DNA of 64,000 nt from an uncultured Christensenella sp. GTDB taxonomy: Bacteria > Bacillota > Clostridia > Christensenellales > CAG-917. Below the pieces are notes generated by a model. That model saw only the letters and a list, made by a program, of their open reading frames with translations. It did not search any database and had not been told where the DNA came from. Location: NCBI GenBank assembly GCA_910577815.1, contig CAJTNO010000003.1, forward strand, positions 178,431-242,430. The letters are read 5' to 3'. The translations under genes and the position numbers were made by a program. This document shows, in pieces, positions 11,464 to 60,751 of the stretch; the first letter of the stretch is position 1, and each line of letters starts with the position of its first letter.

Positions 11464-11481
11464 ATATACTTTAAATAAATT

Positions 11482-12264
11482 CTATTGAACGTTAATATTC
11501 GATTTATCATCGCAATTCAAATCGCTTTTTGCATCCTCTGTAAAGGCGCCGTTTTCGCTACTTGCAATTTGCGGCTCTGCCTTTCGGCATTCCTCTGTTT
11601 TAGTCGAAGTCGGCTCCTCAAAGGTATAATCGTTTTCGGATTTCATCATAGGATTTAATGCTATAGGCGCTTCGAGCGGGTCGCTTGTCGCTTGCTGAAC
11701 TGTATTTTTTTGTTCCTCCTCAAACGCCTTTCGGTTCTTTTTCCCCTCGGTTACAAGCATAACTATAAGCACAATGACAAGCATAAATACGCCGACGGTC
11801 ACGAAGGAGTCCGCAATATTGAAAATAGCAAATTCATCCCAAAACGCGAATTTTATAAAATCGCGAACATAGCCAAGCCCTATTCTGTCAACAAGATTGC
11901 CGATACCGCCGCCTACTATAAACAGTAACGATACTCTAAGCCACATATTTTCCTTTTGAGCAAGGATAAGATAGATAAGAACGGCAACTATGACGATTGT
12001 TGTAATAACGGTCAGCGCAGTGGTATTTCCCGCAAACAAGCCGAAGCCCGCGCCGGTATTTTCAGTATATGTAAGAGTTATAAAACCTTTTATCAGAGGA
12101 TAGCTCTGACCGTTTTGCGTCATTAAAAACTCAACCGCGTATTTTTTTGTAAGCAAATCCGCAAGCAGAATTATGCCGAGCACGGCAAGCTCTATGAGCA
12201 TTACCCACCAGCGTTTTTTTATAACGTCGATAACGTCCTTCCTCGTAATCTTTATTTTAGCCAT
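11482..12264 (-). CDS. lspA: lipoprotein signal peptidase II with ~90-aa acidic C-terminal extension
   Basis: 260 aa. NTGAGFG, GNLVDR, FNIADS motifs. The core ends near aa 170 and is followed by a hydrophilic tail. Confidence 0.9.
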   Translation of the reverse strand: MAKIKITRKDVIDVIKKRWWVMLIELAVLGIILLADLLTKKYAVEFLMTQNGQSYPLIKGFITLTYTENTGAGFGLFAGNTTALTVITTIVIVAVLIYLILAQKENMWLRVSLLFIVGGGIGNLVDRIGLGYVRDFIKFAFWDEFAIFNIADSFVTVGVFMLVIVLIVMLVTEGKKNRKAFEEEQKNTVQQATSDPLEAPIALNPMMKSENDYTFEEPTSTKTEECRKAEPQIASSENGAFTEDAKSDLNCDDKSNINVQ

Positions 12265-12275
12265 CGTAAAACCTC

Positions 12276-12680
12276 TTATCTGCGAAGCTGAGGAGGAACA
12301 GTAATAGAAACTCCCTTAGGCGCAAACAAAAAGATATTTTTTGTAATCTGCTGAATGCTTCCGCCGAGCGCGTAAATCGCTCCGCTCATAAAATCGAGTA
12401 TGCGGTATACGGACGTCTGATTGACTGTGGAAAAATCTACTATTACCTGCTCCTGCATTTTGAGATGGTCGATAAGCAGCTGCACATCCTCATAAGTTGT
12501 AGGCGAGTTAATTACAACTCCGCCCGAGCCGCTGAAGCCTGCCGAATACTGCGTATCGTGCGGCTGCGGAGGCTGTGGCTGAGCCTGTCTGCTCTCGCGG
12601 GAAAACAATCGGCTTACGCGACTGCCCGCCAAAGGTCTTTCGTTTATTTCATTTGCTCTGCTGAAATATCTTTCGTCCAT
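12276..12680 (-). CDS. sepF: cell division protein SepF
   Basis: 134 aa. The C-terminal SepF core (..VQLLIDHLKMQEQVIVDF..RILDFMSGAIYALGG..) follows ylmE/yggS. Confidence 0.9.
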   Translation of the reverse strand: MDERYFSRANEINERPLAGSRVSRLFSRESRQAQPQPPQPHDTQYSAGFSGSGGVVINSPTTYEDVQLLIDHLKMQEQVIVDFSTVNQTSVYRILDFMSGAIYALGGSIQQITKNIFLFAPKGVSITVPPQLRR

Positions 12681-12687
12681 ACTTACC

Positions 12688-13368
12688 TCACTGCATCTGC
12701 GCCGTATTTACGGTGCGCTCGCCGAATATACATCTGCCAAGGCGCAGCATATTGGCGCCGTGCCTCAGTGCGATTTCATAATCGCCGCTCATACCCGCAG
12801 ATAAATACTTCATTTCCAAATTAGATTGTTTCAATTCCTTAGCGCTTTCAAACAGCATATAAAGCCGCTCATATAACGCGTGTAACTCGGGAGTATCACC
12901 CAAATTCGGCATAACCGCCATAACGCCCTTTATTCTTATATGGCTGAATTTTTCCATTGAGCGAATAAACTCAATAACACTGTCGGGACTTACTCCGCCT
13001 TTTGAAAGCTCGTTGCCCATATTGATTTCCACAAGACAGCTCTGAATTTTGTTTCTTTTAGCCGCCTGCTTTTCTATTTCGACAGCAAGCTCCTCCCTGT
13101 CCAATGAGTGTATCAGCTCAACCTTGTCAATTATATATTTCACCTTATTTGTCTGAAGCTGTCCGATAAAATGCCACTTATATCTGCCGTCAAACTTTGC
13201 CGTCAGCTCCTGCACTCTATTTTCACCCAGTATAAAATCGGGAGCATATGACATAAGCTCGTCGACGGTCGCTTTAGTCTGAGTTTTGCAGGCGGCTATA
13301 AGCACGACGTCTCTGCCGCACGACTTAACCGCATTGCGCACCTTAGCTAAGTTATCGTACAATATCAT
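12688..13368 (-). CDS. YggS/YlmE-family PLP homeostasis protein
   Basis: 226 aa. A PLP-binding Lys context (IAACKTQ) and the ylmE-sepF gene order. Confidence 0.88.
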   Translation of the reverse strand: MILYDNLAKVRNAVKSCGRDVVLIAACKTQTKATVDELMSYAPDFILGENRVQELTAKFDGRYKWHFIGQLQTNKVKYIIDKVELIHSLDREELAVEIEKQAAKRNKIQSCLVEINMGNELSKGGVSPDSVIEFIRSMEKFSHIRIKGVMAVMPNLGDTPELHALYERLYMLFESAKELKQSNLEMKYLSAGMSGDYEIALRHGANMLRLGRCIFGERTVNTAQMQ

Positions 13369-15313: not shown

Positions 15314-15943
15314 TTATTCTTCCACCAAATCAAGCTTGGATACGGAAACCTCGTATGCCGTGCGCTCCTCTACGGTTCCGTCCTCAAGCTGCTTCTGATA
15401 GATACGCGACTGTATGCGTCCCATAATGCGCACTCTTTCGCCTACCGAGAAATTACCCGCATATCTTGCGTTTCTTCCCCAGGCGATGGCGGGAATATAA
15501 TCCGACTTGTTATAAGCTCTGTTTACGGCAATCAGCATATCCGTAATTTCACGCTTGAACGGAGTAGTACGGTACACAGGTTGCTTGCATACAAAGCCGT
15601 CTATCTCTATAGTATTCGGGTCCTCCTCGTCGGGCACGACAAGCTCTCTGACAAACACCCTCAAAACCAGCTTGCTTTTGTTTTCCATAAGCTTGTTATA
15701 GCTGCGGAATTGACCTACAATTCCTATCAGGCTTCCGACCTTAAAGTTATCGCTTTCCATAAGACGCTCAGATACCGTGAGCGGAATTATATCCTCCTGC
15801 CCGGACAGCCTCTTAACCGATATGTTAAGGTCGTAGAATCCTTCCCCCATAATCTCGTGAGAAAACTCCGCTTCGGTCACGACTTTGCCCGTAAGGCATA
15901 CTCTGTTGTTCTGCATTTGTTCGTAGCTCATCTTGTCCTCCAT
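15314..15943 (-). CDS. tandem OB-fold, SSB-like nucleic-acid-binding protein
   Basis: The track ORF starts at 16042, but an internal start (MEDKMSYEQ..., 15943) avoids overlapping the upstream gene. It has two SSB-like OB units; the second ends ..RIMGRIQSRIYQKQLEDGTVEERTAYEVSV.. as in SSB proteins. It has no acidic SSB C-terminal tail motif. Confidence 0.65.
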   Translation of the reverse strand: MEDKMSYEQMQNNRVCLTGKVVTEAEFSHEIMGEGFYDLNISVKRLSGQEDIIPLTVSERLMESDNFKVGSLIGIVGQFRSYNKLMENKSKLVLRVFVRELVVPDEEDPNTIEIDGFVCKQPVYRTTPFKREITDMLIAVNRAYNKSDYIPAIAWGRNARYAGNFSVGERVRIMGRIQSRIYQKQLEDGTVEERTAYEVSVSKLDLVEE

Positions 15944-46665: not shown

Positions 46666-48194
46666 CAGTTGTATTTCCTGTCGAGCCCTCTGTACTGGAT
46701 TGCCTCCGCTATATGCTGCTGCTGAATATTCTCACTTCCCGCAAGGTCGGCGATTGTACGCGCTACCTTGAGTATTCTCGTAGTACCTCTCGCGCTAAGA
46801 TTCAGCTTATCGAACGCCTTTTGCAAAAGCCTCTCGCAATCATCGTCTACGGCGCAAAATTTATTCAGCTCTCTCGAGCCCATCTCCGCGTTTGTAAGTA
46901 TGTTCAAGCCCTTAAATCTCTCGAGCTGTATAGCTCTTGCGGCGTTTATTCGCTTTTTAATCTGCGCGGAGGTTTCGGTCCTGGCGGAGTGTCCGCGCAA
47001 TTCGCCGTAGGTTATATTATCAACCTCTATCTGCAAATCTATTCTGTCCATAAGAGGACCGGACAGCTTGGATACATAGTTGTGTATTTGCGTAGGAGTA
47101 CAGCGGCAAACCTGAGTTTTGGAGCCGTAATTTCCGCAGGGACACGGATTCATACTTGCAAGCAGCATAAAATTGGCGGGATATTCCACAGTATTTTGCA
47201 CTCTTGCAACCGTCACCTTTCTGTCCTCGAGAGGCTGGCGCAGAGTTTCAAGCGCTCTACGCGAGTATTCGGGCATCTCGTCCAAAAACAGCACTCCGTG
47301 ATTGGCAAGGCTCACCTCTCCCGGCTTAGCCTTAGCCCCTCCGCCCACAAGCGCGGGGACGGTGGTCGTATGGTGCGGAGTTCTGAACGGACGCGTAGTC
47401 ACTATACCTACATTACTGTCCAAAATTCCCGCCACGCTGTGTATCTTGGTGACCTCAATAGCCTCGTCGAACGTCATCTCAGGCATAATGGTAGGCACGC
47501 ATTTTGCAAGCATAGTTTTACCTGCTCCGGGAGGTCCTATCATAATGGCGTTGTGTCCGCCCGCTACGGCAATTTCCAAAGCGCGCTTTGCAACCAGCTG
47601 TCCTTTTACATCAGCAAAATCCACTCCGTAGCCGTTACCCTGACAGCTCGCCTCATAGCTTGACGTGCTTACGGGCTCGTATTCCACTCCGCTTAAAAAT
47701 TCTATAACCTGACGCAGATTTTCAAACGCGTAAACCTCGATGCCCTCAATATAGCTTGCCTCTCTCGCATCCGCAAGCGGAATAATAAATTTTTTGTTTC
47801 CGTCCTGCATAGCGGAAATTAAAAGCGACATTATGCCGTTTACGTGTCTGAGCTCTCCGTCAAGCGACAGCTCGCCTACAATAACGTAGTCTTTGTAAAG
47901 CTTATTTTCAAGCTGTCCCGAAGCCGCAATTATTCCCACCGCGGCGGCAAGGTCGAAAACAGGACCTTCCTTTTTTGTATCGGCAGGCGCAAGATTTACG
48001 GTAATCCTTTTTGCAGGATACTGAAATCCGCTGTTTTTTATTGCGGAACGCACGCGTTCCTTACTCTCCTTGGTCGCTGTAGAGGCAAGTCCCACCATTT
48101 CGTAGCCGGGAATGCCGCTGTTTATATCAAGTTCGACATCCACAGCGTAACCGTTAAGTCCCTCCAAGGCATAGCTTTTTATCTTTGCAAGCAT
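46665..48194 (-). CDS. comM: YifB/ComM-family Mg-chelatase-like ATPase
   Basis: Start set at MLAKIKSYAL (48194). Lon-like N-terminal domain, Walker A GPPGAGKT, Walker B LFLDE. Confidence 0.93.
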   Translation of the reverse strand: MLAKIKSYALEGLNGYAVDVELDINSGIPGYEMVGLASTATKESKERVRSAIKNSGFQYPAKRITVNLAPADTKKEGPVFDLAAAVGIIAASGQLENKLYKDYVIVGELSLDGELRHVNGIMSLLISAMQDGNKKFIIPLADAREASYIEGIEVYAFENLRQVIEFLSGVEYEPVSTSSYEASCQGNGYGVDFADVKGQLVAKRALEIAVAGGHNAIMIGPPGAGKTMLAKCVPTIMPEMTFDEAIEVTKIHSVAGILDSNVGIVTTRPFRTPHHTTTVPALVGGGAKAKPGEVSLANHGVLFLDEMPEYSRRALETLRQPLEDRKVTVARVQNTVEYPANFMLLASMNPCPCGNYGSKTQVCRCTPTQIHNYVSKLSGPLMDRIDLQIEVDNITYGELRGHSARTETSAQIKKRINAARAIQLERFKGLNILTNAEMGSRELNKFCAVDDDCERLLQKAFDKLNLSARGTTRILKVARTIADLAGSENIQQQHIAEAIQYRGLDRKYN

Positions 48195-48332
48195 ATTATT
48201 ATCCGTCACTATTAAAATAAAGTTAATAAATAATACCATATACCGCCGCAAATTGCAATAAAATTGAGGGGGCGACGGATATTTTAAAAAGCCGCAAAAT
48301 ATGCGATTTTATTTGAATAGATATACGCTTTG

Positions 48333-48361
48333 ATTAAAAATAAATTCGGCTTAACGCCGAA
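48333..48361 (-). terminator. intrinsic terminator closing the four-gene SipW/McrB-like operon
   Basis: Minus strand reads TTCGGCgttaaGCCGAAtttatttttaatc. It lies 38 nt after the stop of the last gene. Confidence 0.6.
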
Positions 48362-48398
48362 ATAAAAAATTTTTATATTGCAAACATTGCAAAGTTTA

Positions 48399-49091
48399 CT
48401 ATTTTTCGTCACCGCCGTCTTTATTCCGCGACGTTAAAATCTCATCCAACAAACGCTTCTTTTGCTCGTCCGTAAGGTTATCAATAGAGCTTGCGTCAAG
48501 CTTAGCCGACTTGGATTTTTCCGCCGCGACCTTATCCTGCACAAATCCTACAATAATAAGTACTCCCACAATACTCAAAGGTAAAGCGATAAGCAAAACA
48601 TATCCGTACCAATGGCTTAAAAATCTTCTGAGCCCTCCGATAAATACGGATTTACGCACAAATTTAGCTTTAACCGAATCGGGACTGAGCTGCCAGTTGT
48701 CAACGCCGACGTTGGGATTGTCGCCCTTGGTTATAAAATACTCCACGGCTCCGTTCTCCGCACGGTGAACCTCTATTATTCTATGAGTAATATTCTGCCC
48801 CTTAAGCACGCCGCTCGGAGCGACAAAGGTGATTATATCCCCCTCTTTTAACGCGTTTTTGTCGTCAATGCTCTTGCAAAGAATGACGTCCGCAGGCTCG
48901 ATAGTTCCCGACATACTGTCCGTAACCACGTCGTACATATAATATCCGAAAATCTTAGAATCTCCGCCGTTCTTGCGTTGCGCAAGCATCAAGGATACAA
49001 TCACAACCAAAAATACAAAAATCACCGCAATAATCGTTGTGGATACAATGTTGTATATTTTCTTTGCTTTGGTCGGTTGCGGCTTGCTCAT
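48399..49091 (-). CDS. SipW-type (S26B, Ser/His/Asp) signal peptidase I, paralog 2
   Basis: 230 aa. N-terminal TM helix, TDSMSGTIEP (Ser), ITHRII (His), KGDNP (Asp), a C-terminal TM helix and a ~45-aa cytosolic tail. Its start codon is 2 nt after the stop of the 751-aa gene. Confidence 0.85.
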   Translation of the reverse strand: MSKPQPTKAKKIYNIVSTTIIAVIFVFLVVIVSLMLAQRKNGGDSKIFGYYMYDVVTDSMSGTIEPADVILCKSIDDKNALKEGDIITFVAPSGVLKGQNITHRIIEVHRAENGAVEYFITKGDNPNVGVDNWQLSPDSVKAKFVRKSVFIGGLRRFLSHWYGYVLLIALPLSIVGVLIIVGFVQDKVAAEKSKSAKLDASSIDNLTDEQKKRLLDEILTSRNKDGGDEK

Positions 49092-49093
49092 TT

Positions 49094-51349
49094 TTATTCT
49101 TTGCCCTCGCCGCTACCGTCCTCTGCTTTTTTTGCGCCGTCCTTAGCAGTATTTGAATGCGGTTGCTCCGTACCGTTTGATATTTCCGCTTTGCTTTTAA
49201 GGTTGGCGGGACGCTTTCTTCCCGTATTTGCAACAAACATAGTGTCGTATGGCAACTGACTGCCGTCGGTAAATCGAATAGAGCCGATACCAACCTTGCT
49301 TTCGTCTACGACGTCTATTTTTTTCGGGCGCTTCGGTTTAGCGGGAGTAATGTCCGCTTTGGGTTTATTCGTAGTTTGCGGATTCTTACGGTTACTCGGT
49401 TTTTTCTCCTCTTTTACCTCTTTGTTATCGCCGACTTCGGCAACATCCTTCTCTGCCGCAAGCTCCTCCGCAACCTCTGATTTTTCAGATAAAGCTTCAG
49501 CTTTATCTTCCGTAGAGCTATTCTCTACGGTTTCAGGCGCATTCAAGTCCTCGCTTGTTTGCGCAATATTTATATCCTGCAACACGTCGTCAGAAATGTT
49601 TTCTCCGGTATTTTCTTCTACTGCGACGCCTTCCTGCTCGGCTGTCTTTGCCGTCTCCAATTCCTCAAGCTTTCTTCTGCGCTCCTCGGCAAGCACGGCT
49701 TCCTTCTTTTCCGCGGCAATCTTTGCGCGCTGATATCCAAACGGGTCAATGCCGAAGCGAAGTTTACTCTTATCCTCCGCCGTCACCGTCTGCTCCAGCT
49801 CCTTACGCAGTTTATTATAGGACTCCGCACGCTTAGCCATATCCTCTTTACGGCGGCGTATACGATAGTTCCTATCCTTCTCGTCAACCTCGTCCTGCTT
49901 GATAGTACGGTATGCATTAAGACAACGGTCGATAGCGTCCTTAACCTTGGAAATATCCTCGGCTGTAAGTCTGTCGTCCTCGGGCTTCTTGTAAAGCTTT
50001 CTTACTTCAAACAGATGCTTATCGAATTTATCGGCGTCATCGTCGATATCGGGCTCCTCCTGGTCGGCTTTAGGCGGCATTTCCTTTATAATCTCCACCT
50101 CTACGCGCTTTTCGACCTCTACCTCCTGCACTATCTCCTTGCCGCGCTTGGACTGCTCCTGCGGAGTAAATTCCGGCTGCTGCTCAGGCTCCTTTTCGGG
50201 TTCCTTTTTCGGCTCAATCTCATCGGGCTGCTCGGTGGGCGCAGGCTCGTCGTTCTCATTCTTATGCGTTTCCTCGAGATTGTCCTTTTCGTCCTCGTTT
50301 TCCAGCTGCTCGTCTAACTTTTGAGCAAACTCGTCGCGGTTGAGCTCGTCCTTTTCAAAGTCCATTTCTCCCACGCGCAGGAAATCGCCGAACTCCTTGT
50401 CCTCCATATCCAAATCGGTCTCGTGCTGGTCGTACATACTTTCAAAAAGCATAGTATTTAAGGTGACCATATTCTTGAGTTCGTCTACGCTTTCGCCGTC
50501 TATGTCATAATCCTCCACCTCGTCGGAGGTAGAAAAACCGCCCGATACGTTATAGGTTTCTATAAACTGCCACAGCGTAAGCGCCTTTTTAAAGTTAGGC
50601 TCCTTCAATATGACGTTTGTACGCATAATGGGCGGTCTCACGGGCGCGGAATTGCGCATAGATTTTGCAAAAGAGGATGATAAAAAGTCGGTTATAATTC
50701 TGTCTATTTTGGCAACGCGCTCGATTTTAGTCAAGGTCTCCGGGTCAAGGCGCATTACCTCGTCAAAGCTGAGCTGAGCAAAATATTCCGTTCGGAAGGT
50801 AACCTTTTTACTTGGCAGACTAAAGCGCGACTCCACGTCCAACGCCAACACGTCCTGCGTTGCGGATGCCTTTTTGATTTTGTCGTAGCGCATAGTGACA
50901 AAATCCTTAAGCTTTAACAGCAAGGTGTATATAAAGCGGTTTTCGTAAATCTCGAATGATTCTTCCTTTGTAATATTAAGTATCTTGCTTGGCGTAACCA
51001 TTCCGTCCTTATCGACCTTGGAAATCATATTGGTATGCTGCGCGAGAAACTTGACCGATTCGGTAGAGATACTTCGTGCAAGCGATACGTCCACGATATC
51101 CTCTTCCTGAACGATAAACTTACGCGGATTACGCACAATCGTATCGAGATTAGGCAAAATTTCTTCTATTGTATCAATCCAATCAATGGAAATGTCCTGT
51201 ATAAGCCTTTTTTTTGCAAGCTTAAAGCTTGACGAGCCTTTATCGACGCGCTTTTTAAACTGCTCGTAAAACTCCTCGTTTTTCAGAACGGATACAATCT
51301 TATGAGCGTATTGCTTATATACGTCTTTTGTGATTTGGTTATCTGCCAT
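49094..51349 (-). CDS. 751-aa hypothetical protein: folded N-terminal ~270 aa in the McrC position with no nuclease motif seen, ~330 aa of Glu/Asp/Lys-rich low complexity, then a basic Lys/Pro tail
   Basis: RBS GGAGAG. No signal peptide or TM helix. ..EESFEIYENRFIYTLLLKLKDF.. recalls the N-terminal helix of McrC-type partners. I could not find a hydrophobic-(D/E)xK nuclease core. The central region reads EQLENEDEKDNLEETHKNENDEPAPTEQPDEIEPKKEPEKEPEQQPE... Confidence 0.8.
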   Translation of the reverse strand: MADNQITKDVYKQYAHKIVSVLKNEEFYEQFKKRVDKGSSSFKLAKKRLIQDISIDWIDTIEEILPNLDTIVRNPRKFIVQEEDIVDVSLARSISTESVKFLAQHTNMISKVDKDGMVTPSKILNITKEESFEIYENRFIYTLLLKLKDFVTMRYDKIKKASATQDVLALDVESRFSLPSKKVTFRTEYFAQLSFDEVMRLDPETLTKIERVAKIDRIITDFLSSSFAKSMRNSAPVRPPIMRTNVILKEPNFKKALTLWQFIETYNVSGGFSTSDEVEDYDIDGESVDELKNMVTLNTMLFESMYDQHETDLDMEDKEFGDFLRVGEMDFEKDELNRDEFAQKLDEQLENEDEKDNLEETHKNENDEPAPTEQPDEIEPKKEPEKEPEQQPEFTPQEQSKRGKEIVQEVEVEKRVEVEIIKEMPPKADQEEPDIDDDADKFDKHLFEVRKLYKKPEDDRLTAEDISKVKDAIDRCLNAYRTIKQDEVDEKDRNYRIRRRKEDMAKRAESYNKLRKELEQTVTAEDKSKLRFGIDPFGYQRAKIAAEKKEAVLAEERRRKLEELETAKTAEQEGVAVEENTGENISDDVLQDINIAQTSEDLNAPETVENSSTEDKAEALSEKSEVAEELAAEKDVAEVGDNKEVKEEKKPSNRKNPQTTNKPKADITPAKPKRPKKIDVVDESKVGIGSIRFTDGSQLPYDTMFVANTGRKRPANLKSKAEISNGTEQPHSNTAKDGAKKAEDGSGEGKE

Positions 51350-51429
51350 AACTCTCCGAAATCACCCGACCTATCAAAGCATAAGCGTATAAGGTCGGAA
51401 TTATATAGCAACGGCATAAGCCGCAAGTA

Positions 51430-52944
51430 TCAGAACAGCTTTTTCAATCTGTTGATATACTCCTTGCTCTCCTGCATATTTTCCTCGCCGAACAGCTCGC
51501 TGAGATACAGCACAAGCCCGTCTATTTCGTCGCGGATATAGGACAGGTTAAGCGACTCGAACTTTCTGAAAATCTTATTGCAAAGCACGTAATCCAGTCC
51601 ATCGAGTTCGTTTCCGCCGCAACCTACGTAAGAAGGAACAAACTCCTTAAGCTGCTTTACGATACGGTTGCCGAACGCCAGTCGGAAATGCTCTATAACA
51701 TAATCGTCCAGCTGATTTATCTTGTCAAGATTGTCCTGCGACACCTTATACAACTCCTGCGACTTTTTAAACTCAGCCTCGAGGTGCTTATAGCTTATAA
51801 ACAGATTGTCCTCCCAAGGCGCCTCGAATGCGATACCCTTGCTGTTTATGTTGATAGGCATAGCACGGTCGTAAACCTTATCCGAGATAGCAAAGGTCGA
51901 GTCGTCGTTGTTTGCGGTGCCTATAAACCACATATTCTGCGGAAGCTGAAATCTGCCCTTTTCAATATGCTTGGGGTCGTTCGGCCAGCCTGACGGAACA
52001 AGGTCGACAATCCACTCGTCGCGCGAGGGCATTTCGAGTATGGACAGCATTTCCGCAAAGTAGTACTCTACACGCGCTATATTCATTTCGTCGAGAACGG
52101 TAAGATAAATCTGGTCGTTCCAGGTAGCCTCGTACATCTTTTTAAGCACCTCGGTTTCATTGAAGCGCTTTGTAAATTCGTTGAAGTAGCCGAACAGCTC
52201 CGTACGGTCTCTCCAGGACGGCTGAACCGACGCAATCGTTGCGGGATTGTTTAAGAAAATTCCCATCGCGTGCGGCAAAGAGGTTTTACCCGTACCTGAT
52301 ATACCCTGCAAAATCAACAGGCGCGACGTCGACAGACTTGCAACAAACAGCCTTATTATTCGCGGCTGATAAAACAGCTTCATACGCGAGCAGGCAAAGT
52401 TACGGAACTTATCGCAAAACTGCGGTAGAGTAATTTCGTCGTCGTAAACGGGCGGAACGTAATTTTCGTAAATCTTATCGATTTCGGTAAGCTTATAAAA
52501 ACGCGATTCTCCGCTTGGGCTTTTCTCCTTGCCTTCCTCGCCCTCGGGCGCTTCCTCACCCTCGTACTTTCCTATGTCGCTGACGCGCATAGAAAGTATG
52601 CGGTCCTTTTCCGCACTCATTTTAATAATCTGCTTTTTAAGGTTGGCGCACTCCTCTACTAAGTCCTGCGGCAATACCTTTGCCTTGCCAAGCTTGGCAA
52701 GCTTGCGAAGTCCAAGCGCGATAAGCACTATTATGGACACTATTACGGCAACGATTAGTATAATGAAAATTATAGCGACAGCCCATTCGCCCGCACCGAA
52801 GTACTGAGTATAATTCTTGAATGCGTCGGAATACCCATCATTATAAAAGATGTGTAAAAAACCCCAGAAAATACTACCTAATCCCTTGTCGTAAAACGCT
52901 CCTAAAAACGCTTTAAGAAACTCAAATACAAGATTGATATTCAT
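51430..52944 (-). CDS. membrane-anchored McrB-like AAA+ (AAA_5-type) NTPase
   Basis: 504 aa. TM helix AVAIIFIILIVAVIVSIIVLIALGL followed by RKLAKLGKAK, a coiled linker, Walker A LQGISGTGKTS, McrB-style Walker B/NxxR region LTVLDEMNIARVEYYFAEMLSILE, then FIGTANNDDSTFAISDKVYDRA. Confidence 0.8.
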   Translation of the reverse strand: MNINLVFEFLKAFLGAFYDKGLGSIFWGFLHIFYNDGYSDAFKNYTQYFGAGEWAVAIIFIILIVAVIVSIIVLIALGLRKLAKLGKAKVLPQDLVEECANLKKQIIKMSAEKDRILSMRVSDIGKYEGEEAPEGEEGKEKSPSGESRFYKLTEIDKIYENYVPPVYDDEITLPQFCDKFRNFACSRMKLFYQPRIIRLFVASLSTSRLLILQGISGTGKTSLPHAMGIFLNNPATIASVQPSWRDRTELFGYFNEFTKRFNETEVLKKMYEATWNDQIYLTVLDEMNIARVEYYFAEMLSILEMPSRDEWIVDLVPSGWPNDPKHIEKGRFQLPQNMWFIGTANNDDSTFAISDKVYDRAMPININSKGIAFEAPWEDNLFISYKHLEAEFKKSQELYKVSQDNLDKINQLDDYVIEHFRLAFGNRIVKQLKEFVPSYVGCGGNELDGLDYVLCNKIFRKFESLNLSYIRDEIDGLVLYLSELFGEENMQESKEYINRLKKLF

Positions 52945-53080
52945 AGTCCTAAAATATTTATTCTAAAACGCTTACGCAAATGCCATCCGTATAGAGAAGT
53001 ATGTAAAGTCTTGTGCAAATGCACTGATTTGCTTGCGCAAGCAACGGATTATTTCTCCGTCATTTTCCCCGCTTACTATA

Positions 53081-54088
53081 TTATTCGGCTTTATCCGCAT
53101 CGATACCATCGCCGATTACGTCGACCTTCTGTTCGGGCGCGGCGCTGCCTTCAGACTCTGCATTTTCAACTTCGGTCGCAATTTCGCCGCTTTCCGAATT
53201 CTCGACGTTCTCCACACTCTCGGAAGTAGAATCTGCAACGTCGGCTTCCGATTTTTGAGATGCCAAAAGCTGCGCGATAAGCGCCTGCTTTTCCTCCTCG
53301 GTCATTGCGTCAACGGAAATAGCCGTCTCTCCCGCAACCTTCTTTTCTTTTTCGAGCTTGGCAATAATGAGCGTGCGCACCAAAATAAACGCGTAAATAA
53401 CAAACAGCAATATAAGCGGCAGCACAATCAAACAGAAAAAGCGGGTTTTGCCGTGTATGGGATGCTGCATAAAGTTTGCAAGACCGCCCACTCCCTTGAG
53501 CATTTTACCGCTTGTAAAATTCAGATTTTCGTCAACATCGCCCCAGGTTGCCACTACATCGCCGACAACCACCTTGCGCAAATCCCAGGAGGATTGGTCA
53601 ACTGCGGACATATCGTCCCCGTCCTTTACGGCGCAATCCTGCCAGTTTCCCTCCTGATTGTCGCCCCTCGTACGTAAAGCGGCAACCGAACCGTCCTTAT
53701 TCCTTTCGATAGCTACTAATCTGTGTGAATTAAACTCGTCGTAGCTGTCGCCGTTTTCGTATGTACGGACAAACTTAAACGTAATGACCTGACCGACCTT
53801 CAAGTCGGAGCCGTCTCCTTCATAGGCTTTGGCAATTATAACGTCGTCTGTGTCGAAAGTGGGCTTCATCGAATCCGACGCGACGTTAAAATAGCAATTA
53901 TCGCCCACACGGGTTATCTTATCGGGATTGGTAGAGCGGATTATAGTAAAAATCGCCACCACTAAAGCAAAAATAATCAAAATTATACAAAGGACGTTAA
54001 CAGTCCAGTTAAGCGCAATCTTGACCTTTTGTTGCGTAGGCGTAAGCTCCTTCTTCTCATTTTGAGAAGACTTTTCAAACAGTTTCAT
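53081..54088 (-). CDS. SipW-type (S26B, Ser/His/Asp) signal peptidase I, paralog 1, with a long acidic C-terminal tail
   Basis: 335 aa with the RBS AAGGAG. N-terminal TM helix, ASDSMKPTFD (Ser), NSHRLV (His), RGDNQ (Asp), a C-terminal TM helix (aa ~216-243), then ~90 aa of Glu/Ser-rich tail. Confidence 0.85.
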   Translation of the reverse strand: MKLFEKSSQNEKKELTPTQQKVKIALNWTVNVLCIILIIFALVVAIFTIIRSTNPDKITRVGDNCYFNVASDSMKPTFDTDDVIIAKAYEGDGSDLKVGQVITFKFVRTYENGDSYDEFNSHRLVAIERNKDGSVAALRTRGDNQEGNWQDCAVKDGDDMSAVDQSSWDLRKVVVGDVVATWGDVDENLNFTSGKMLKGVGGLANFMQHPIHGKTRFFCLIVLPLILLFVIYAFILVRTLIIAKLEKEKKVAGETAISVDAMTEEEKQALIAQLLASQKSEADVADSTSESVENVENSESGEIATEVENAESEGSAAPEQKVDVIGDGIDADKAE

Positions 54089-54273
54089 AAAACTTTCTCC
54101 TTATGCCGTGTTGCGCCCTCTCCCAAGACTTTTTGCCATAACCGATGCGACTCCGCACCGCCGAGATAAAACTCAACCGCTATTGACGTCACCGAGCCAT
54201 ACTTATTGTCCTTAAAAGCATAACGCCCTTCACCCGAATGACTTTGCTGTAGTATAGATTTCTATACGTTAGA

Positions 54274-54302
54274 ATTATAAAAGATTTCGTACACTATGTC
54301 AA
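54274..54302 (-). promoter_or_regulatory. perfect consensus sigma-A promoter TTGACA-17 nt-TATAAT driving the four-gene operon
   Basis: Minus strand reads TTGACAtagtgtacgaaatctttTATAAT. The -35 is at 54297-54302 and the -10 at 54274-54279. The first ATG of the operon is ~185 nt downstream. Confidence 0.75.
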
Positions 54303-54357
54303 TATACAAATATTAAAATTATTTAATAAAATCTATATAAAAATCAAAATTTCAAGT

Positions 54358-54392
54358 GTTTTAAAATGAAAAGCACCCGCCTTCGGGTGCTT
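54358..54392 (-). terminator. intrinsic terminator after the EF-G paralog, insulating it from the downstream operon promoter
   Basis: Minus strand reads AAGCACCCGaaggCGGGTGCTTttcatttt. Confidence 0.8.
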
Positions 54393-54422
54393 TCGTTATT
54401 TAAGCTATAAATAATGTCTGTT

Positions 54423-56471
54423 TTATGCTTCGCGTGATTTTGCGTCGGCAATAATCTTATCGTTATTCATTGCAGGCACTTCCTCATAGCGCACGAGATG
54501 CATTTCAAACTTGCCTCTGCCCTGCGTCATCGAGCGCAAATCGGTTGCGTATCTAAACATTTCCGCCTGCGGAACCTCCGCAGTAATTATCTGCTTGCCG
54601 TTTGCCATATCCGTGCCGAGGATTCTGCCTCTGCGCTTATTCATATCGCCGAGAATATCGCCGAGGTACTCGTCTGGTACGGTGATTTTAGCCTCCATAA
54701 TAGGCTCGAGGAAGCAAGGCGCCGCCGCCGCAATTCCGTCGGCATACGAAAGCTTCGCCGCTGTAACAAACGCAATTTCCTTACTGTCTACGGGATGGTA
54801 TTTCCCGTCATACAGAGTAGCCTTGAGATTTACCATAGGATATCCCGCAAGCACGCCGTGCTTAATAGCCTCTCTAAGTCCCTTTTCAACCGCGGGAATA
54901 AACTGACGGGGAACCGCGCCGCCAACTACCGCGTCGACGAACTCGAATACTCCGTCCTCTGCGCCCGGCTCGTACTTGATGAATACGTCGCCGTACTGTC
55001 CTGCGCCGCCCGACTGCTTCTTATGCTTTCCTTCCGCCTGCGCGGTCTTCTTTATGGTTTCGCGATACGCAACCTTTGGCTCCTGCCAGGAGATGTCTAT
55101 GCCGAGCTTTGCCTTTACGCGCTTGCACATAATATCAAGCTGAGCCTCGCCCAAGCCGCTGATTAGCACGTCGCCGGTTTCCACGTTCTTCTCAACCTTG
55201 AACGTCGCGTCCTCCTCCTGCATTTTGATTAGCCCCTGTATAGCCTTTTCCTCGTCCTTCGCCGCCTTTACAGCGTATGAAATTACGGGACTCGGGAACT
55301 CTATCTTCTCATACACAAGCTTATTTCCGTTAGCCGCAAGCGTATCGTTCGTATTGGTATATACAAGCTTTGCAACCGCGCCGATATCTCCGGCGTTAAG
55401 GCTGTCAACCGTTTCCTGCTTCTTACCCTTGAGGATGTAGAGCGCGCCGACCTTTTCGGGCTTATCCTGCGAATTGTTGTAAACGGAATCGCCGCTTGAA
55501 AGCTTGCCCTGAATAACCTTGAAAATAAGCAGCTTGCCTACGTACGGGTCTACAACCGACTTAATTACCTGCGCGCTGAACGGAGCCGAGCCGTCTACGC
55601 CGATTTCCTTGATATCACCGTCTACGCTCGCTTTGATTTTATGCACGCGGTTGGGAGACGGCATAAGGTCCACTATCTTTTCCATAAGTCTGGCGACGCC
55701 CTTTGAAGTTATCGCGTTGCCCGCCATAAGAGGAATAAATACCTCGCCCGCGATAGCGGCGTGAAGTCCCTTCTGTATTTCTTCGTTTGTGAACTGCTCG
55801 CCGTCAAAGAACTTCATCATAAGCTCCTCGTCGGTTTCGGCAATCATTTCCATAAGCTTGGCGTTATACTCGTCAACGTCGGCTTTCATTGCCGCGGGAG
55901 CGTCTATAGCCTTGCCCGCAAGGTCGTACGCCTTGCCTGTAAGCACGTCTACGGAGCCGACCATAGCGCCGCCTTCCATAATGGGAAGCTCAACGGGAAC
56001 TACGTTGTTATACTTTGCCATTATAGCTCTTGCCGTTCCGTTGAAATCGGAATTATCCTTATCGACCGCGTTTACAAATATAAATGTAGGTATCTTTTTC
56101 TCGCCGCACAAATCGAGTGCCTTCTCGGTGCCGACGGTAACCGAGCCCGTAGCCGAGGTAACCACAATAGCGCTGTCCGCCGCCTGAAGCGCGGATTGCA
56201 TCTCGCCTTCGAAATCAAAAAATCCCGGAACGTCCAAAAGATTTATTTTTACGTCGCGATACACCGCGTAACCGAGCGCAAGAGATATGGAAATTTTACG
56301 CTTTATTTCTTCGTCGTCGTAATCCATAGTTGACGAACCGTCGTCAACCTTGCCAAGACGGGAAATGGTTTTAGCCTCGAACATAATAGCCTCGGCAAGC
56401 GACGTTTTGCCCTCTCCCGAGTGTCCGATAAGTGCGACGTTGCGAATTGAATCGGTATCAAAAGTTTTCAT
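54423..56471 (-). CDS. elongation factor G-family GTPase (EF-G paralog)
   Basis: 682 aa. G1 GHSGEGKTS, DVPGF, NAVD, and EF-G domains II-V by length and motif order. The N-terminus differs from canonical FusA (no AHIDAGKTT). Confidence 0.88.
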   Translation of the reverse strand: MKTFDTDSIRNVALIGHSGEGKTSLAEAIMFEAKTISRLGKVDDGSSTMDYDDEEIKRKISISLALGYAVYRDVKINLLDVPGFFDFEGEMQSALQAADSAIVVTSATGSVTVGTEKALDLCGEKKIPTFIFVNAVDKDNSDFNGTARAIMAKYNNVVPVELPIMEGGAMVGSVDVLTGKAYDLAGKAIDAPAAMKADVDEYNAKLMEMIAETDEELMMKFFDGEQFTNEEIQKGLHAAIAGEVFIPLMAGNAITSKGVARLMEKIVDLMPSPNRVHKIKASVDGDIKEIGVDGSAPFSAQVIKSVVDPYVGKLLIFKVIQGKLSSGDSVYNNSQDKPEKVGALYILKGKKQETVDSLNAGDIGAVAKLVYTNTNDTLAANGNKLVYEKIEFPSPVISYAVKAAKDEEKAIQGLIKMQEEDATFKVEKNVETGDVLISGLGEAQLDIMCKRVKAKLGIDISWQEPKVAYRETIKKTAQAEGKHKKQSGGAGQYGDVFIKYEPGAEDGVFEFVDAVVGGAVPRQFIPAVEKGLREAIKHGVLAGYPMVNLKATLYDGKYHPVDSKEIAFVTAAKLSYADGIAAAAPCFLEPIMEAKITVPDEYLGDILGDMNKRRGRILGTDMANGKQIITAEVPQAEMFRYATDLRSMTQGRGKFEMHLVRYEEVPAMNNDKIIADAKSREA

Positions 56472-57526: not shown

Positions 57527-58390
57527 TTAATTGTGAAAAGCTCTGTTGATAGCGGTAGCAATTACGCCGGCTGCGGCATTTACCAAAAAGTCTATTTCCT
57601 TAGGCGCAACCACCAGATGCGACAAATCCTTTTCAACCATTTCCGCCCTTAAACGGTATTCGTCCACGGTTATTTCCATCTTGGATAGATAATCCTTTAC
57701 AAACCCGTAAACGGCAGTCCGCATAGACAGCATAAGCGGCACACCTATGGCGATTACAGGCACGCCCAAAACGCTCTTGTCTATTCTCTGCTTGTCCTGT
57801 CCCACGCCTCCGCCGGGAGATATTCCTGCGGTGCTTATCTGAAACGACGTACCCACCCGTGAAACCGTACCCGTTGCAAGGCTGTCTATGAGTATGACCG
57901 CGCACGGCTTTACTTTGTCGGTTACCGCGCTCGCTATATCCGCCGACTGCATTCCCGTAGTTCCCAAGACGCCGGTGGTCATCGCGTATACGCATTGCTT
58001 TGTGTATGACACTGGATATTCCTTTGTAACCTCAACGCCCTCTACCGCGCGCTGTCCGAGCGCGTCCGCAATTACACCGCCGTTGCCCAAGCCTATAACC
58101 AGCACGGGAGTTGTTTTACGCACCGTTCCTATAAGTCCGGCAAGCGCAGTCGCAATATAAGCGGCAAGGCTTTTTAGAGCTTTTTCACTGCCGTAAACGT
58201 TCTTCGGGCAATCAAAGGTAATATATACGCCTCTGTCCCGACCTATCTGCTTGGCAAGCTCCAGGCTCTTAATGTTTAAGTAGTGCTGTACAATCCCGCA
58301 GCCAAGCTCCGTGCGCTTGCTAAGCTCTCCAAGTCCGCCGGCTTCCGCCGCCTCGATAGCCATATCCGAAATAAAATCGATATTTTTCAT
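57527..58390 (-). CDS. gpr: germination protease GPR (spore endopeptidase, A25 family)
   Basis: 287 aa. ..DMAIEA.., VLVIGLGNGGVIADALG, GVLGTTGMQSADI, IDSLA, STAGISPGGGVG, LGVPVIAIGVP. Adjacent to rpsT as in Bacillus. Confidence 0.85.
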   Translation of the reverse strand: MKNIDFISDMAIEAAEAGGLGELSKRTELGCGIVQHYLNIKSLELAKQIGRDRGVYITFDCPKNVYGSEKALKSLAAYIATALAGLIGTVRKTTPVLVIGLGNGGVIADALGQRAVEGVEVTKEYPVSYTKQCVYAMTTGVLGTTGMQSADIASAVTDKVKPCAVILIDSLATGTVSRVGTSFQISTAGISPGGGVGQDKQRIDKSVLGVPVIAIGVPLMLSMRTAVYGFVKDYLSKMEITVDEYRLRAEMVEKDLSHLVVAPKEIDFLVNAAAGVIATAINRAFHN

Positions 58391-58846: not shown

Positions 58847-60751
58847 CTACTCCTGCGAAGTATTCTTTCTTTGCTTATGACGATAGATTACAACCGCGGC
58901 AACCGCAAAAGCAAACACCGATACTATAACGCCCACTACTATAGTAAATATTTTTAATTCGTAAGTGCGTGCATAATCCGCCTTTCGTCCCCCGACAATA
59001 AAGCGCGCCGCCTTACCTTCAAAGCCGTTTACCTCGATTTCAATTTCATAGGTGCCCTTCTGAGTAGGCGTAAAATCGAAGCTATTTCCCTTATGATTGT
59101 AAACTCCGTTTACAAACCACAGACAATTATCGGCATCCTCCTTGGGTATATAATTAAGACTGTCAACGGTCAGCTTATAAGTTTTTCCGACCTCGCAACC
59201 GGACAAATCCTTTAACGGATTTCCGTTTAAGCTTGCGCTTATTTCAAATGAGGATACATTCTCTGCCGTGACAAGCATATATCCAACGGATATTCCTACG
59301 CTTGCCTCTTTTACTGCTTCCTCGCCGTGTTCGTCACAGCTATGCCGCCAAACCGCTCTAATCTCCGTATCGCCTACAACCGGCTTAGGCATATACGACG
59401 CTTCAAAGCCTTCCGCAAATTTATCCTCTCCCGCAAACCACTCTACCTTACCCTGTCCGTAATGCGACAATGGCACAACGCTCAGTTTTAAAGGTATAGC
59501 TTTTAAAGCTCCCAAACGTTGTTTTAACAACGAAACGTCTGCCGTTTCGATTTTTGCCTCGCACATTGTATATCCTATTAACGCATTTAAATCAAAAATC
59601 CTGCAATCGCCTACCGTCTTTCCACCCTCGGTTTTATTAAGAACCTTAGTCGAAGCTTTTTTCACGAGTCTTGCAAGCTCAACGGAATCCATTTCCTCGC
59701 CGTTATTTCCCGCCAACGCCTTATATTTCATTGCAAGCAGCGCCGCGCCGAATGACACTATCGGAGCAGCCATACTTGTTCCCGACAGAGCTTTATAATC
59801 AAATCCGCTATCGCCAATCACACCGTTTGCGCTGTATATATCAGCCCCCGGAGCGCACAAATCATATCCGTAGGTATTCCAAAAGCCGTAATTTGACGTA
59901 TTACTCAAAACCGCTTCGCCGTTTACGTTCTTGTAGTTCATAACTCCTATAACATTAGGAAGCGCCGCAGGATAACGCTTGACCTCGCTTCCGTCATTCC
60001 CTGCCGCGGCAACAAGCACAGCTTTGGTATGCGCCGTGGACTGGTCCAAGCCCGCAAACGTCCTCGCATCAGACGATAACGACATATTTATTACGTCAGC
60101 GCCCTGCTGTAAGGCAAAATCGACGGCGCTTTTAACGTCAGCGCCCGAAAATTTATCCTCTCCCGTAAATGCTACGTGATAGGACGCTTTTATAGGCAGA
60201 ATTTTTATATATCGCTCTATATTAAGGGCGTGTATCAATGTTGCCACAATGCCTGCAACGTGCGTGCCGTGCCTTCTGTTTTCATCATCGGACACATCGT
60301 TCTCGGTATATATGGAGGGATTATGCGACACTGCTGTATTCTTAACAATAGGCGTGCCGTCTGACCTGCGCAATATTACGTCGTATTTCCCTGTTCCGTT
60401 GTTATCTACGGCTTCGTTATCCGTAAGCCCGCCGTCATTGTATTTCCCGCTAAACAGCTCGTGCTCAAGATTTACTCCGCTATCTATTACAGCTATGACA
60501 ACAGGATTATCTTCAAGATATTTAAAATCAAAAGAATCGTCCTGCTTCCAGTCTTCAACCGCAGCTTTAAGTCCGTCTATTCCTATTACGTCCGACCACC
60601 AGTCAAGCTCCTGATTTTGCACCTTATCCACATAACTAATCGGCAAAAGAGCGTCGGCAATTTCATAAGAAAACAAAAATGTAAGAATTGCGCTTAAAGC
60701 AAACGCAATTAAGAATACATATAGAGCTTTTCGCTTAAAACTGCTATGCAT
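58847..60751 (-). CDS. cell-surface subtilisin-family (S8) protease with N-terminal signal/anchor and C-terminal TM anchor
   Basis: 634 aa. VIAVIDSGV, HGTHVAGIV, GTSMAAPIV. A beta-rich (Ig-like?) C-terminal region is followed by the TM helix IFTIVVGVIVSVFAFAVAAVVIY and RHKQRK. Confidence 0.88.
   Translation of the reverse strand: MHSSFKRKALYVFLIAFALSAILTFLFSYEIADALLPISYVDKVQNQELDWWSDVIGIDGLKAAVEDWKQDDSFDFKYLEDNPVVIAVIDSGVNLEHELFSGKYNDGGLTDNEAVDNNGTGKYDVILRRSDGTPIVKNTAVSHNPSIYTENDVSDDENRRHGTHVAGIVATLIHALNIERYIKILPIKASYHVAFTGEDKFSGADVKSAVDFALQQGADVINMSLSSDARTFAGLDQSTAHTKAVLVAAAGNDGSEVKRYPAALPNVIGVMNYKNVNGEAVLSNTSNYGFWNTYGYDLCAPGADIYSANGVIGDSGFDYKALSGTSMAAPIVSFGAALLAMKYKALAGNNGEEMDSVELARLVKKASTKVLNKTEGGKTVGDCRIFDLNALIGYTMCEAKIETADVSLLKQRLGALKAIPLKLSVVPLSHYGQGKVEWFAGEDKFAEGFEASYMPKPVVGDTEIRAVWRHSCDEHGEEAVKEASVGISVGYMLVTAENVSSFEISASLNGNPLKDLSGCEVGKTYKLTVDSLNYIPKEDADNCLWFVNGVYNHKGNSFDFTPTQKGTYEIEIEVNGFEGKAARFIVGGRKADYARTYELKIFTIVVGVIVSVFAFAVAAVVIYRHKQRKNTSQE

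Follow-up and report, generated by a model that had tools for sequence, protein, structure and literature searches.

The stretch of DNA considered here, hereafter the window, comprises 64,000 nucleotides (64 kb) from an uncultured Christensenella sp. (GenBank GCA_910577815.1, contig CAJTNO010000003.1, positions 178,431 to 242,430) and carries a set of four genes, all on the minus strand, for a SipW-type signal peptidase of 335 amino acids (aa), a membrane-anchored GTPase of the McrB type, a nuclease-less McrC-like protein and a second SipW-type peptidase of 230 aa (Table 1). Judged by the signature of the GTPase, its transmembrane (TM) helix and coiled coil, the DUF2357 domain of its partner and the adjacent peptidase genes, the locus is a CoCoPALM system. 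This name was given by Bell et al. (eLife 2024, PMC11090510, section 7) to a large clade within the NxD branch of McrB GTPases, in which an FtsB-like TM helix and coiled coil form part of the GTPase, which occurs with a McrC homolog and with proteins of the signal peptidase family; the McrB and McrC homologs both usually have coiled coils. The peptidase-family proteins were called 'likely pilus assembly factors' in one paragraph without analysis, and the subject was deferred to a forthcoming paper. In the literature we found no follow-up or other description of CoCoPALM beyond this article and its preprint; the preprint adds nothing further, and the supplements of the article hold no text on CoCoPALM. 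A mention of McrB in a preprint on BsaA was rejected as a relevant link, being merely the genotype of an E. coli strain. The gene combination, which a first-pass annotation had taken to be undescribed, thus already bears a name, and CoCoPALM is a kind of system that was named in 2024 but is otherwise unstudied. New beyond the work of Bell et al. are a motif in the peptidase tails, a candidate substrate family, the pattern of selection and a leader RNA.

The four genes form one real operon, with a single promoter and a single terminator. The -35 box of the promoter is invariant among 18 aligned orthologous loci and the -10 box is kept there as TAnAAT, while a TTGACA box is found upstream in 38 of 41 orthologous loci. 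At the other end of the operon, the gene for the 230-aa peptidase starts with an ATG 2 nt past the stop codon of the McrC-like gene. The upstream paralog of EF-G has its own strong terminator, a 10-bp hairpin at 54370-54393. In all these respects the layout proposed in the first-pass annotation (four co-directional genes between a consensus promoter and a terminator hairpin, the 2-nt spacing, and an independently terminated EF-G paralog) was borne out by the open reading frame (ORF) calls and the signals found.

Table 1 Features of the operon and of its surroundings (window coordinates)
Feature	Position	Strand	Basis
SipW-type peptidase paralog 1 (335 aa)	53081..54088	-	ORF call, family model, TM prediction
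Membrane-anchored McrB-type GTPase, NxD branch (504 aa)	51430..52944	-	ORF call, profile matches
Nuclease-less McrC-like partner (751 aa)	49094..51349	-	Pfam DUF2357
SipW-type peptidase paralog 2 (230 aa)	48399..49091	-	ORF call, TIGR02228
Sigma-70-type promoter TTGACA-17-TATAAT	54274..54302	-	12/12 consensus
Structured leader RNA, two tandem modules	54119..54250	-	Within 5' untranslated region 54089-54267; covariation
Intrinsic-terminator-like hairpin followed by T-run	48345..48361	-	Operon end
Germination protease Gpr	57527-58390	-	Peptidase_A25, E 4.5e-40
Membrane-anchored subtilase	58847-60751	-	Peptidase_S8

Over residues 190-395 the GTPase matches E. coli McrB (NF008457, E 6.6e-7; PDB 6hz4, E 5.9e-7), and it carries a Walker A motif (GISGTGKT, 214-221), a Walker B motif (LDEMN, 284-288) and the signature N-N-D-D (345-348, within GTANNDDS). 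Taken alone, the signature in the window could also be read as NxxD; in 32 diverse relatives N-x-D does not vary and is followed by D or E, or else by Q (P0272) or A (P0390), in agreement with the definition of the NxD variant by Bell et al. At 50% identity and E below 1e-30, this large family comprises 747 clusters. N-terminal to the GTPase domain lie, in this order, an aromatic-rich segment (residues 1-53), a single strong predicted TM helix (54-79) and a short coiled coil (about 93-119). The last is apparent as a heptad-like segment, and a profile of the N-terminal module matches coiled coils in the PDB over positions 80-130; PF04977 (DivIC/FtsB) matches the module below threshold, in three of ten members (best E 0.015). 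Since basic residues follow the TM helix on its C-terminal side, the GTPase domain is predicted to be cytoplasmic, with the first 53 residues facing outward or lying on the membrane surface. A DNA-binding or modified-base reader domain was sought in residues 1-140 and no match was obtained. Thus, the earlier description of a McrB-like NTPase with a membrane anchor instead of a DNA reader stands, but that of an N-terminus consisting of a TM helix only is incomplete, as the aromatic segment and the coiled coil are present too.

The 751-aa partner matches Pfam DUF2357 (PF09823, the N-terminal domain of McrC) with 32.9 bits against a gathering score of 23.3. The core of this domain covers approximately residues 60-160 and includes RNPRKF (73-78) and YENRF (135-139). 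Across 69 orthologs, which range from 492 to 1017 aa in length, strong conservation is confined to residues 60-160 and 221-260, and RNPR (73-76) and YENRF are among the invariant residues. Beyond residue 160 the invariant residues include no acidic pair plus lysine of the PD-(D/E)xK type, and sequence searches of Pfam, NCBIfam and the PDB for a nuclease return nothing beyond DUF2357, in agreement with the initial view of a protein in the McrC position that keeps the ENRF motif and has no PD-(D/E)xK core. The remainder of the protein is a variable, charged and helical tail, for which the earlier label of plain low-complexity sequence does not hold: it resembles a charged single alpha helix or coiled coil, with profile matches to the KER helix of CAF-1 (E 2.3e-5) and the single alpha helix of myosin VI (E 5.3e-4). 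An AlphaFold2 model of residues 1-345 is of moderate quality, with a predicted local distance difference test score (pLDDT) of 67.8, and Foldseek searches with it against the PDB gave nothing at E<0.2, McrC included, which at this model confidence is uninformative on the fold. The least confident stretch of the model, residues 79-129, is also the most conserved one, which would fit a finger that becomes ordered only inside the GTPase ring.

Both peptidases appear to be active enzymes of the SipW type (S26B). The 230-aa protein scores 68.8 bits with TIGR02228, the NCBIfam model of archaeal-type signal peptidase I (cutoff 51.85), whereas the 335-aa protein stays under this cutoff with 43.6 bits. 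Predicted TM helices enclose the catalytic motifs in each: in the 335-aa protein, TM1 (32-50) and TM2 (219-237) lie on either side of SDSM (71-74), SHRLV (121-125) and RGDN (141-144), and in the 230-aa protein, TM1 (19-37) and TM2 (about 162-184) flank TDSM (57-60), THRII (102-106) and KGDN (122-125). The latter protein aligns with human SEC11C/A, the catalytic subunits of the signal peptidase complex (E 4.1e-5); in the alignment THRII falls on VHRV and KGDN on KGDN. In an alignment of 144 peptidases that covers homologs of both paralogs, the serine is kept in 142 of 142 sequences, the histidine in 142 of 143 and the aspartate of the GD pair in 138 of 143, and because these residues are kept, both paralogs look catalytically active, as had been proposed from their Ser, His and Asp motifs. 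Pilus chaperones of the SipA/LepA type are catalytically inactive, unlike the two intact peptidases found here.

Past the second TM helix, both peptidases have a cytoplasmic tail with a related motif: MTEEEKQALIAQLLAS in the 335-aa protein (residues 262-277, nt 53258-53305) and LTDEQKKRLLDEILTS in the 230-aa protein (residues 206-221, nt 48429-48476). A motif of the type (L/M)S(D/E)EEK(R/K)(R/K)LA(E/Q)EYLAS is present in 103 of 134 long tails, where composition-matched shuffles give an expected count of 0.4, and it starts at a median distance of 20 residues beyond the helix. The counts are based on a defined, looser motif with this shuffle control, as a stricter regular expression undercounts (65 of 144). 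None of the ten peptidases with short tails has the motif; these ten are the enzymes that close clusters of pilin-like genes (see below) in one clade. On sequence grounds, the tail motif may be regarded as a putative docking helix for the cytoplasmic GTPase/McrC pair.

The gene set is widespread. In a scan with one genome per species, 109 relatives were obtained, of which the best 80, all uncultured Christensenellales-type gut Clostridia, have a GTPase that is 60-97% identical to that of the window. GTPase, McrC-like and SipW-like genes occur together in 80 of 80 species-level loci wherever the flank suffices, and where enough flank is available, nearly every locus has two genes for catalytically intact peptidases. 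Three gene orders were found: that of the window (sip-B-C-sip), beside comM-dprA-topA; B-sip-C-sip; and sip-B-C followed by further genes. Because the set recurs in all loci where the flank allows its detection, the arrangement is not due to chance; co-occurrence of the four families in other genomes, which the first-pass annotation had named as a test, is seen in at least 80 Christensenellales-type species.

More distant pairs occur in other settings. In L085 (8001-11397), a multi-TM GTPase of the NxD type (608 aa, 36% identical) and its 519-aa partner are encoded between rplI and thyA/folA/leuS, without a nearby peptidase, which indicates that membrane-anchored NxD McrBC-like pairs in core-gene contexts extend beyond CoCoPALM. 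A 43%-identical GTPase with a short, 324-aa McrC-like partner directly follows a phage holin and an M23/LysM-like endolysin (L082:3317-8267) and may be a prophage-borne variant, with no peptidases in view. In a third locus (L081:4692-12923), two tandem pairs of McrB-like and McrC-like proteins (465 and 604 aa; 493 and 1141 aa) precede a 2193-aa protein, and no SipW gene was called.

The selection acting on the operon was examined by comparing the window with L001 and L003, the two relatives that have all ten neighbouring genes. Since synonymous divergence (dS) is saturated (1.3 to above 3), ratios to it are rough and the nonsynonymous divergence (dN) was relied on. The GTPase has the lowest dN of the ten genes (0.026 versus L001 and 0.031 versus L003; the protein is 97% identical to its L001 ortholog), as compared to the EF-G paralog (0.048 and 0.050), TopA (0.071 and 0.079) and ComM (0.127 and 0.098), with both peptidases at about 0.28 in each. 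Synteny with comM-dprA-topA is kept across many species. The neighbours in the window were identified as TopA, DprA, ComM, the EF-G-like protein and Gpr, and there are no mobility genes at the locus, which confirms the earlier description of a core-gene neighbourhood. The presence of Gpr implies that the lineage probably forms spores. A low dN of this kind in the GTPase, combined with fixed core synteny and no mobility genes, is unlike the pattern of defence islands.

A possible function is suggested by the genes that adjoin the set in relatives. Down to 34% GTPase identity, relatives have one to six paralogous secreted beta-sandwich proteins next to it, here called pilin-like, and 28 of 80 genome loci have such genes at a distance of at most 8 kb. 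The operon of L074 (60% GTPase identity) comprises an HD-EAL gene, a gene for a 254-aa protein, a pilin-like gene, sip, McrB, McrC, four pilin-like paralogs and sip; in L016 (91%) two pilin-like genes lie just upstream of the first peptidase gene, and in L083 (34%) two pilin-like genes, the GTPase gene and a SipW gene occur in a row. The reverse test gave the same association: all four pilin-like homologs chosen on long contigs adjoin sip, GTPase and McrC-like genes, with a precomputed DUF2357 match on the McrC-like protein in three of the four loci. Each of the pilin-like proteins combines a basic N-terminus and a hydrophobic helix with a site such as TGVTYAWFS or LTYSWFT and a C-terminal motif (V/I)W(L/V)(E/D)GxDxxC. 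Their signal anchors end in (A/G)T(Y/F/L)AW(F/L), a cleavage-site pattern that we take to resemble that of SipW substrates of the TasA/CalY class. Of the 520 family members that could be detected, all are labelled 'hypothetical' and none has a Pfam domain. In an AlphaFold2 model (pLDDT 75, predicted template modelling score 0.69) a TM helix is followed by a low-confidence segment past the predicted cleavage site and by an all-beta domain. Across species the signal anchors are 82-87% identical and the mature parts 26-30%. Such conservation is unusual for Sec signal peptides and suggests specific recognition by the machinery.

Some further observations were made on the surroundings of the set in these relatives. 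Two convergent pilin-like genes in L016 share a 175-nt inverted repeat of 97% identity (1343-1517 and 5361-5535) that spans the promoter region and the first 29 or so codons; by inversion, the repeat could allow mature domains to be swapped, or it could be no more than a recent inverted duplication. Genes for giant surface-type proteins directly follow the operon in L139 (14410-19719; 1769 aa, LRR_5) and L138 (15888-20921; 2392 aa), and these proteins are possibly additional cargo or adhesins associated with the fibres. In relatives, a variable island separates the pilin-like gene from genes further away; in L136 it holds a Pycsar-like pair (11227-12445; a weak nucleotide-cyclase match plus PycTM); genes of the corresponding island in L137 lie at 11874-12881 and 15509-15790, and the content of the two islands includes, besides the Pycsar-like pair, Abi_2 and a GIY-YIG gene.

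The 5' untranslated region of about 180 nt between the promoter and the first ATG contains a structured RNA that was absent from the first-pass annotation. It consists of two tandem modules, each with an outer stem, an inner hairpin and a mini-hairpin of two or three pairs on the near-invariant GGCAAUAAG. The RNAalifold consensus, derived from 19 closer sequences since a broader alignment of 26 had misaligned divergent rows, has 30 pairs, 19 of which show compensatory changes. Of the alignment cells 98.1% are paired, as compared to 85.3% in shuffles, a value reached by none of 500 shuffles; the covariation score is 0.512 versus 0.242 in the control, and a slid-register control gave 28-50% paired cells. 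Nucleotide identity of the leader is 54-69% in closer relatives and 34-49% in more divergent ones, and the peptidase encoded downstream has 43-62% protein identity.

With a covariance model (R1) that gives 130.8 bits on the leader of the window, 33 loci of the window type each showed a strong match (at least 75 bits) just upstream of the first peptidase gene. Weaker matches were obtained in this position for more divergent loci, and immediately upstream of the GTPase gene for three loci; no second copy was detected in the window. A pattern scan of metagenome contigs gave 49 matches, 46 of which are true and located upstream of an ortholog of the 335-aa peptidase gene. The true leaders end 41-43 nt before the ATG of this ortholog, or 101 nt in one case, where the alignment starts at residue 22. 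The remaining three matches (L110, L111 and L117), which have no covariance-model match and no operon genes, were rejected as chance. Comparison of the leader with Rfam gave no match at E<=1, and a search of Rfam over 47900-54700 yielded only a chance match to a small RNA. As the leader is found only at this operon, it can be considered a dedicated, and candidate new, cis-regulatory RNA. With respect to regulation, genes for HD-EAL or EAL proteins, of the cyclic-di-GMP phosphodiesterase type, head the operon in two relatives (L074:3922-5328 and L139:2505-3914), lie two genes upstream in another (L138:7382-8128) and occur at about 10 kb from the set in L136 (18364-20286) and L137. Their position at the head of the operon or adjoining it in other clades hints at control of the system by cyclic-di-GMP. 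No EAL genes were found in the window; its upstream 634-aa membrane protein was considered as a counterpart of the EAL protein of relatives and rejected, since it is the subtilase of Table 1.

We regard it as moderately probable that the operon encodes a GTP-controlled module for the maturation or assembly of surface fibres, in which the pilin-like proteins would be the substrates, the peptidase tails the coupling element and GTP the gate. The pilin-like proteins would be exported by Sec and held at the membrane by their unusually conserved signal anchors, after which cleavage by the two SipW enzymes, on the outer side of the membrane, would release an N-terminus for fibre assembly, as in donor-strand fibres of the SipW/TasA type. 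On the inner face, a ring of cytoplasmic GTPase with an inserted McrC-like subunit may dock on the tail helix of the peptidases, so that GTP binding and hydrolysis could gate, time or energise the maturation and assembly of subunits. Expression of the operon would be controlled by the dedicated leader RNA.

Several observations weigh against this proposal. The window contains no pilin-like gene or SipW-class signal peptide, as judged by a motif search, tblastn and a signal-peptide screen, and the EF-G paralog, murI and gpr take the place of the pilin-like genes in the window, L001 and L003. The earlier conclusion that no substrate is encoded in cis therefore holds for the 64 kb covered; the link to substrates rests on relatives, and in this organism the substrate genes must lie outside the window. 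The pilin-like family has no profile match in Pfam, NCBIfam or the PDB, Peptidase_M73 included, and the Foldseek search with its model returned weak matches to beta-sandwich or jelly-roll folds (best E 1.2e-3, TM-score 0.24), without TasA in the top 50. For this reason no TasA fold is claimed, and 'TasA-like' is to be understood as an analogy drawn from the signal-peptide class and the linkage to SipW. The related membrane NxD GTPase pairs of L085 and L081 occur without a nearby peptidase. The PADLOC candidate defence model PDC-M26A matches the GTPase with E 8.8e-37, over the GTPase core only (profile positions 313-436 of 724). To our knowledge, the SipW/TasA systems described so far need no NTPase, and they offer no explanation for the role of a GTPase.

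The PADLOC match bears on a function in anti-phage defence or abortive infection, in which a McrBC-derived sensor of invading nucleic acid would trigger membrane proteolysis through the peptidases. The descent of the GTPase/McrC pair from McrBC is in line with it, as are the predicted defensive role of the sister clade CoCoNuT (PMC11090510) and the fact that relatives can carry defence genes beside the locus, such as the Pycsar-like pair of L136 and Abi_2 of L137. Nevertheless, the McrC-like protein and the 230-aa peptidase have no PADLOC match, the 335-aa peptidase has only weak ones on a TM segment (E 0.004-0.02), and the complete PDC-M26, with both components, is not present at the locus; a literature search found no paper that mentions PDC-M26. 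Moreover, no nucleic-acid reader, nuclease or other toxic effector was found in the operon, the GTPase diverges less rapidly than EF-G and TopA, many species share the fixed core synteny, mobility genes are absent, and the set is consistently linked to secreted paralogs of structural appearance. A defence function thus seems very unlikely to us. Of the two working hypotheses of the first-pass annotation, the pilin-like genes of relatives and the low dN of the GTPase favour envelope or surface assembly and disfavour defence.

The slow evolution of the GTPase and its position among core genes would also suit a housekeeping module for the envelope, cell division or sporulation that has nothing to do with pilin-like proteins. 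An FtsB-like TM helix and coiled coil would then target the GTPase to the septum or forespore membrane, with the peptidases acting on general substrates or on those of the spore surface. The weak DivIC/FtsB resemblance of the N-terminal module, the nearby gpr gene of a lineage that probably sporulates, the multi-TM relative among rplI, thyA and leuS without a peptidase, and the window's lack of a pilin-like gene can all be accommodated in this way. However, the DivIC match is sub-threshold and generic for a TM helix plus leucine zipper, and the coiled coil of the GTPase must be cytoplasmic, whereas that of FtsB is extracytoplasmic. Furthermore, no genes for division or sporulation are conserved together with the set in the three gene orders, and the recurrent partners are pilin-like genes; we consider such a module unlikely. 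Signalling by regulated proteolysis can also be envisaged, with the GTPase/McrC pair sensing a cytoplasmic cue and switching the peptidases onto a membrane regulator, similar to site-1 cleavage of RsiV and RsiP. Signal peptidases can make the site-1 cut in anti-sigma factors (PMC8844934, PMC6066255), and the conserved cytoplasmic tails suggest control from the cell interior. Yet a sigma factor, anti-sigma factor or other regulator is conserved in none of the locus types, and the combination of two peptidase paralogs with several secreted paralogs better fits a structural pathway; this possibility appears highly improbable.

Fibre maturation or assembly under the control of GTP thus being the preferred explanation, a more far-reaching claim can be put forward tentatively, as possible rather than probable: CoCoPALM would be a previously unrecognised machine for the biogenesis of surface fibres (pili), near-core in gut Christensenellales, in which a McrBC-derived hexameric GTPase acts as membrane motor or gate, docked on the tails of the two SipW peptidases, and drives the maturation and assembly of beta-sandwich subunits that are exported by Sec and tethered by their signal anchors, with a new riboswitch-like tandem leader as the switch of the operon. 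McrBC is a textbook case of modification-dependent restriction, and here its core occurs without the parts that handle nucleic acids, anchored in the membrane and evolving more slowly than EF-G; as an example of the recruitment of a defence motor to cell-surface biology, this would be a clear one. If the substrate link is true, there is an energised or gated form of SipW/TasA-like fibre assembly, so far deemed independent of NTPases. The system is carried by Christensenellales, gut bacteria that are of interest for host health and whose surface structures are almost unknown. For experimental work, the system offers as handles the two active-site serines, the Walker A motif, the tail helix, a putative substrate family whose signal anchor is diagnostic, and the leader RNA.

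It is of interest to compare the locus with known systems. The type IV pilus is a functional analogy only: there is no homology, since the NTPase here is an AAA+ protein of the McrB type, the peptidase belongs to S26B instead of being a PilD aspartyl protease, and the signal peptides are of the Sec type. The analogy concerns a hexameric cytoplasmic NTPase at the membrane (PilB), a dedicated peptidase, and subunits whose globular parts vary while their hydrophobic N-terminal segment is highly conserved. For the peptidases, the comparison is with tapA-sipW-tasA of B. subtilis and sipW-bsaA-bsaB-bsaC of C. perfringens (PMC11580942), in which a SipW-type S26B peptidase is likewise linked to secreted fibre or matrix subunits whose signal peptides have a small-X-small site at their end and aromatic residues after it. 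In those operons there is a single peptidase and an NTPase is absent; the putative substrates considered here form a distinct, unannotated family without a match to Peptidase_M73/TasA, and the window has no gene for them.

With canonical McrBC (E. coli; PDB 6hz4, 6ut6, 7vsr) the locus shares the AAA+ GTPase core, which aligns over residues 190-395 with Walker A, Walker B and signature, and a partner with the N-terminal (DUF2357) domain of McrC; it differs in lacking the DNA-binding domain and the PD-(D/E)xK nuclease, and in having a membrane anchor, NxD instead of NxxD and conservation like that of a core gene. CoCoNuTs (PMC11090510) have in common with it the NxD branch of the GTPase, coiled-coil fusions and McrC homologs that often lack an active nuclease, but they always have HEPN or another nuclease in tandem as well as predicted RNA-binding domains. 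None of the four gene products of the operon matches HEPN or another nuclease, and peptidases and a membrane anchor are present instead. From CoCoPALM there is no defining difference: the NxD-type McrB GTPase with TM helix and coiled coil, the DUF2357 McrC homolog with a coiled-coil or charged-helix extension, and the adjacent genes of the signal peptidase family are all found here, with both peptidase paralogs keeping the catalytic Ser, His and Asp.

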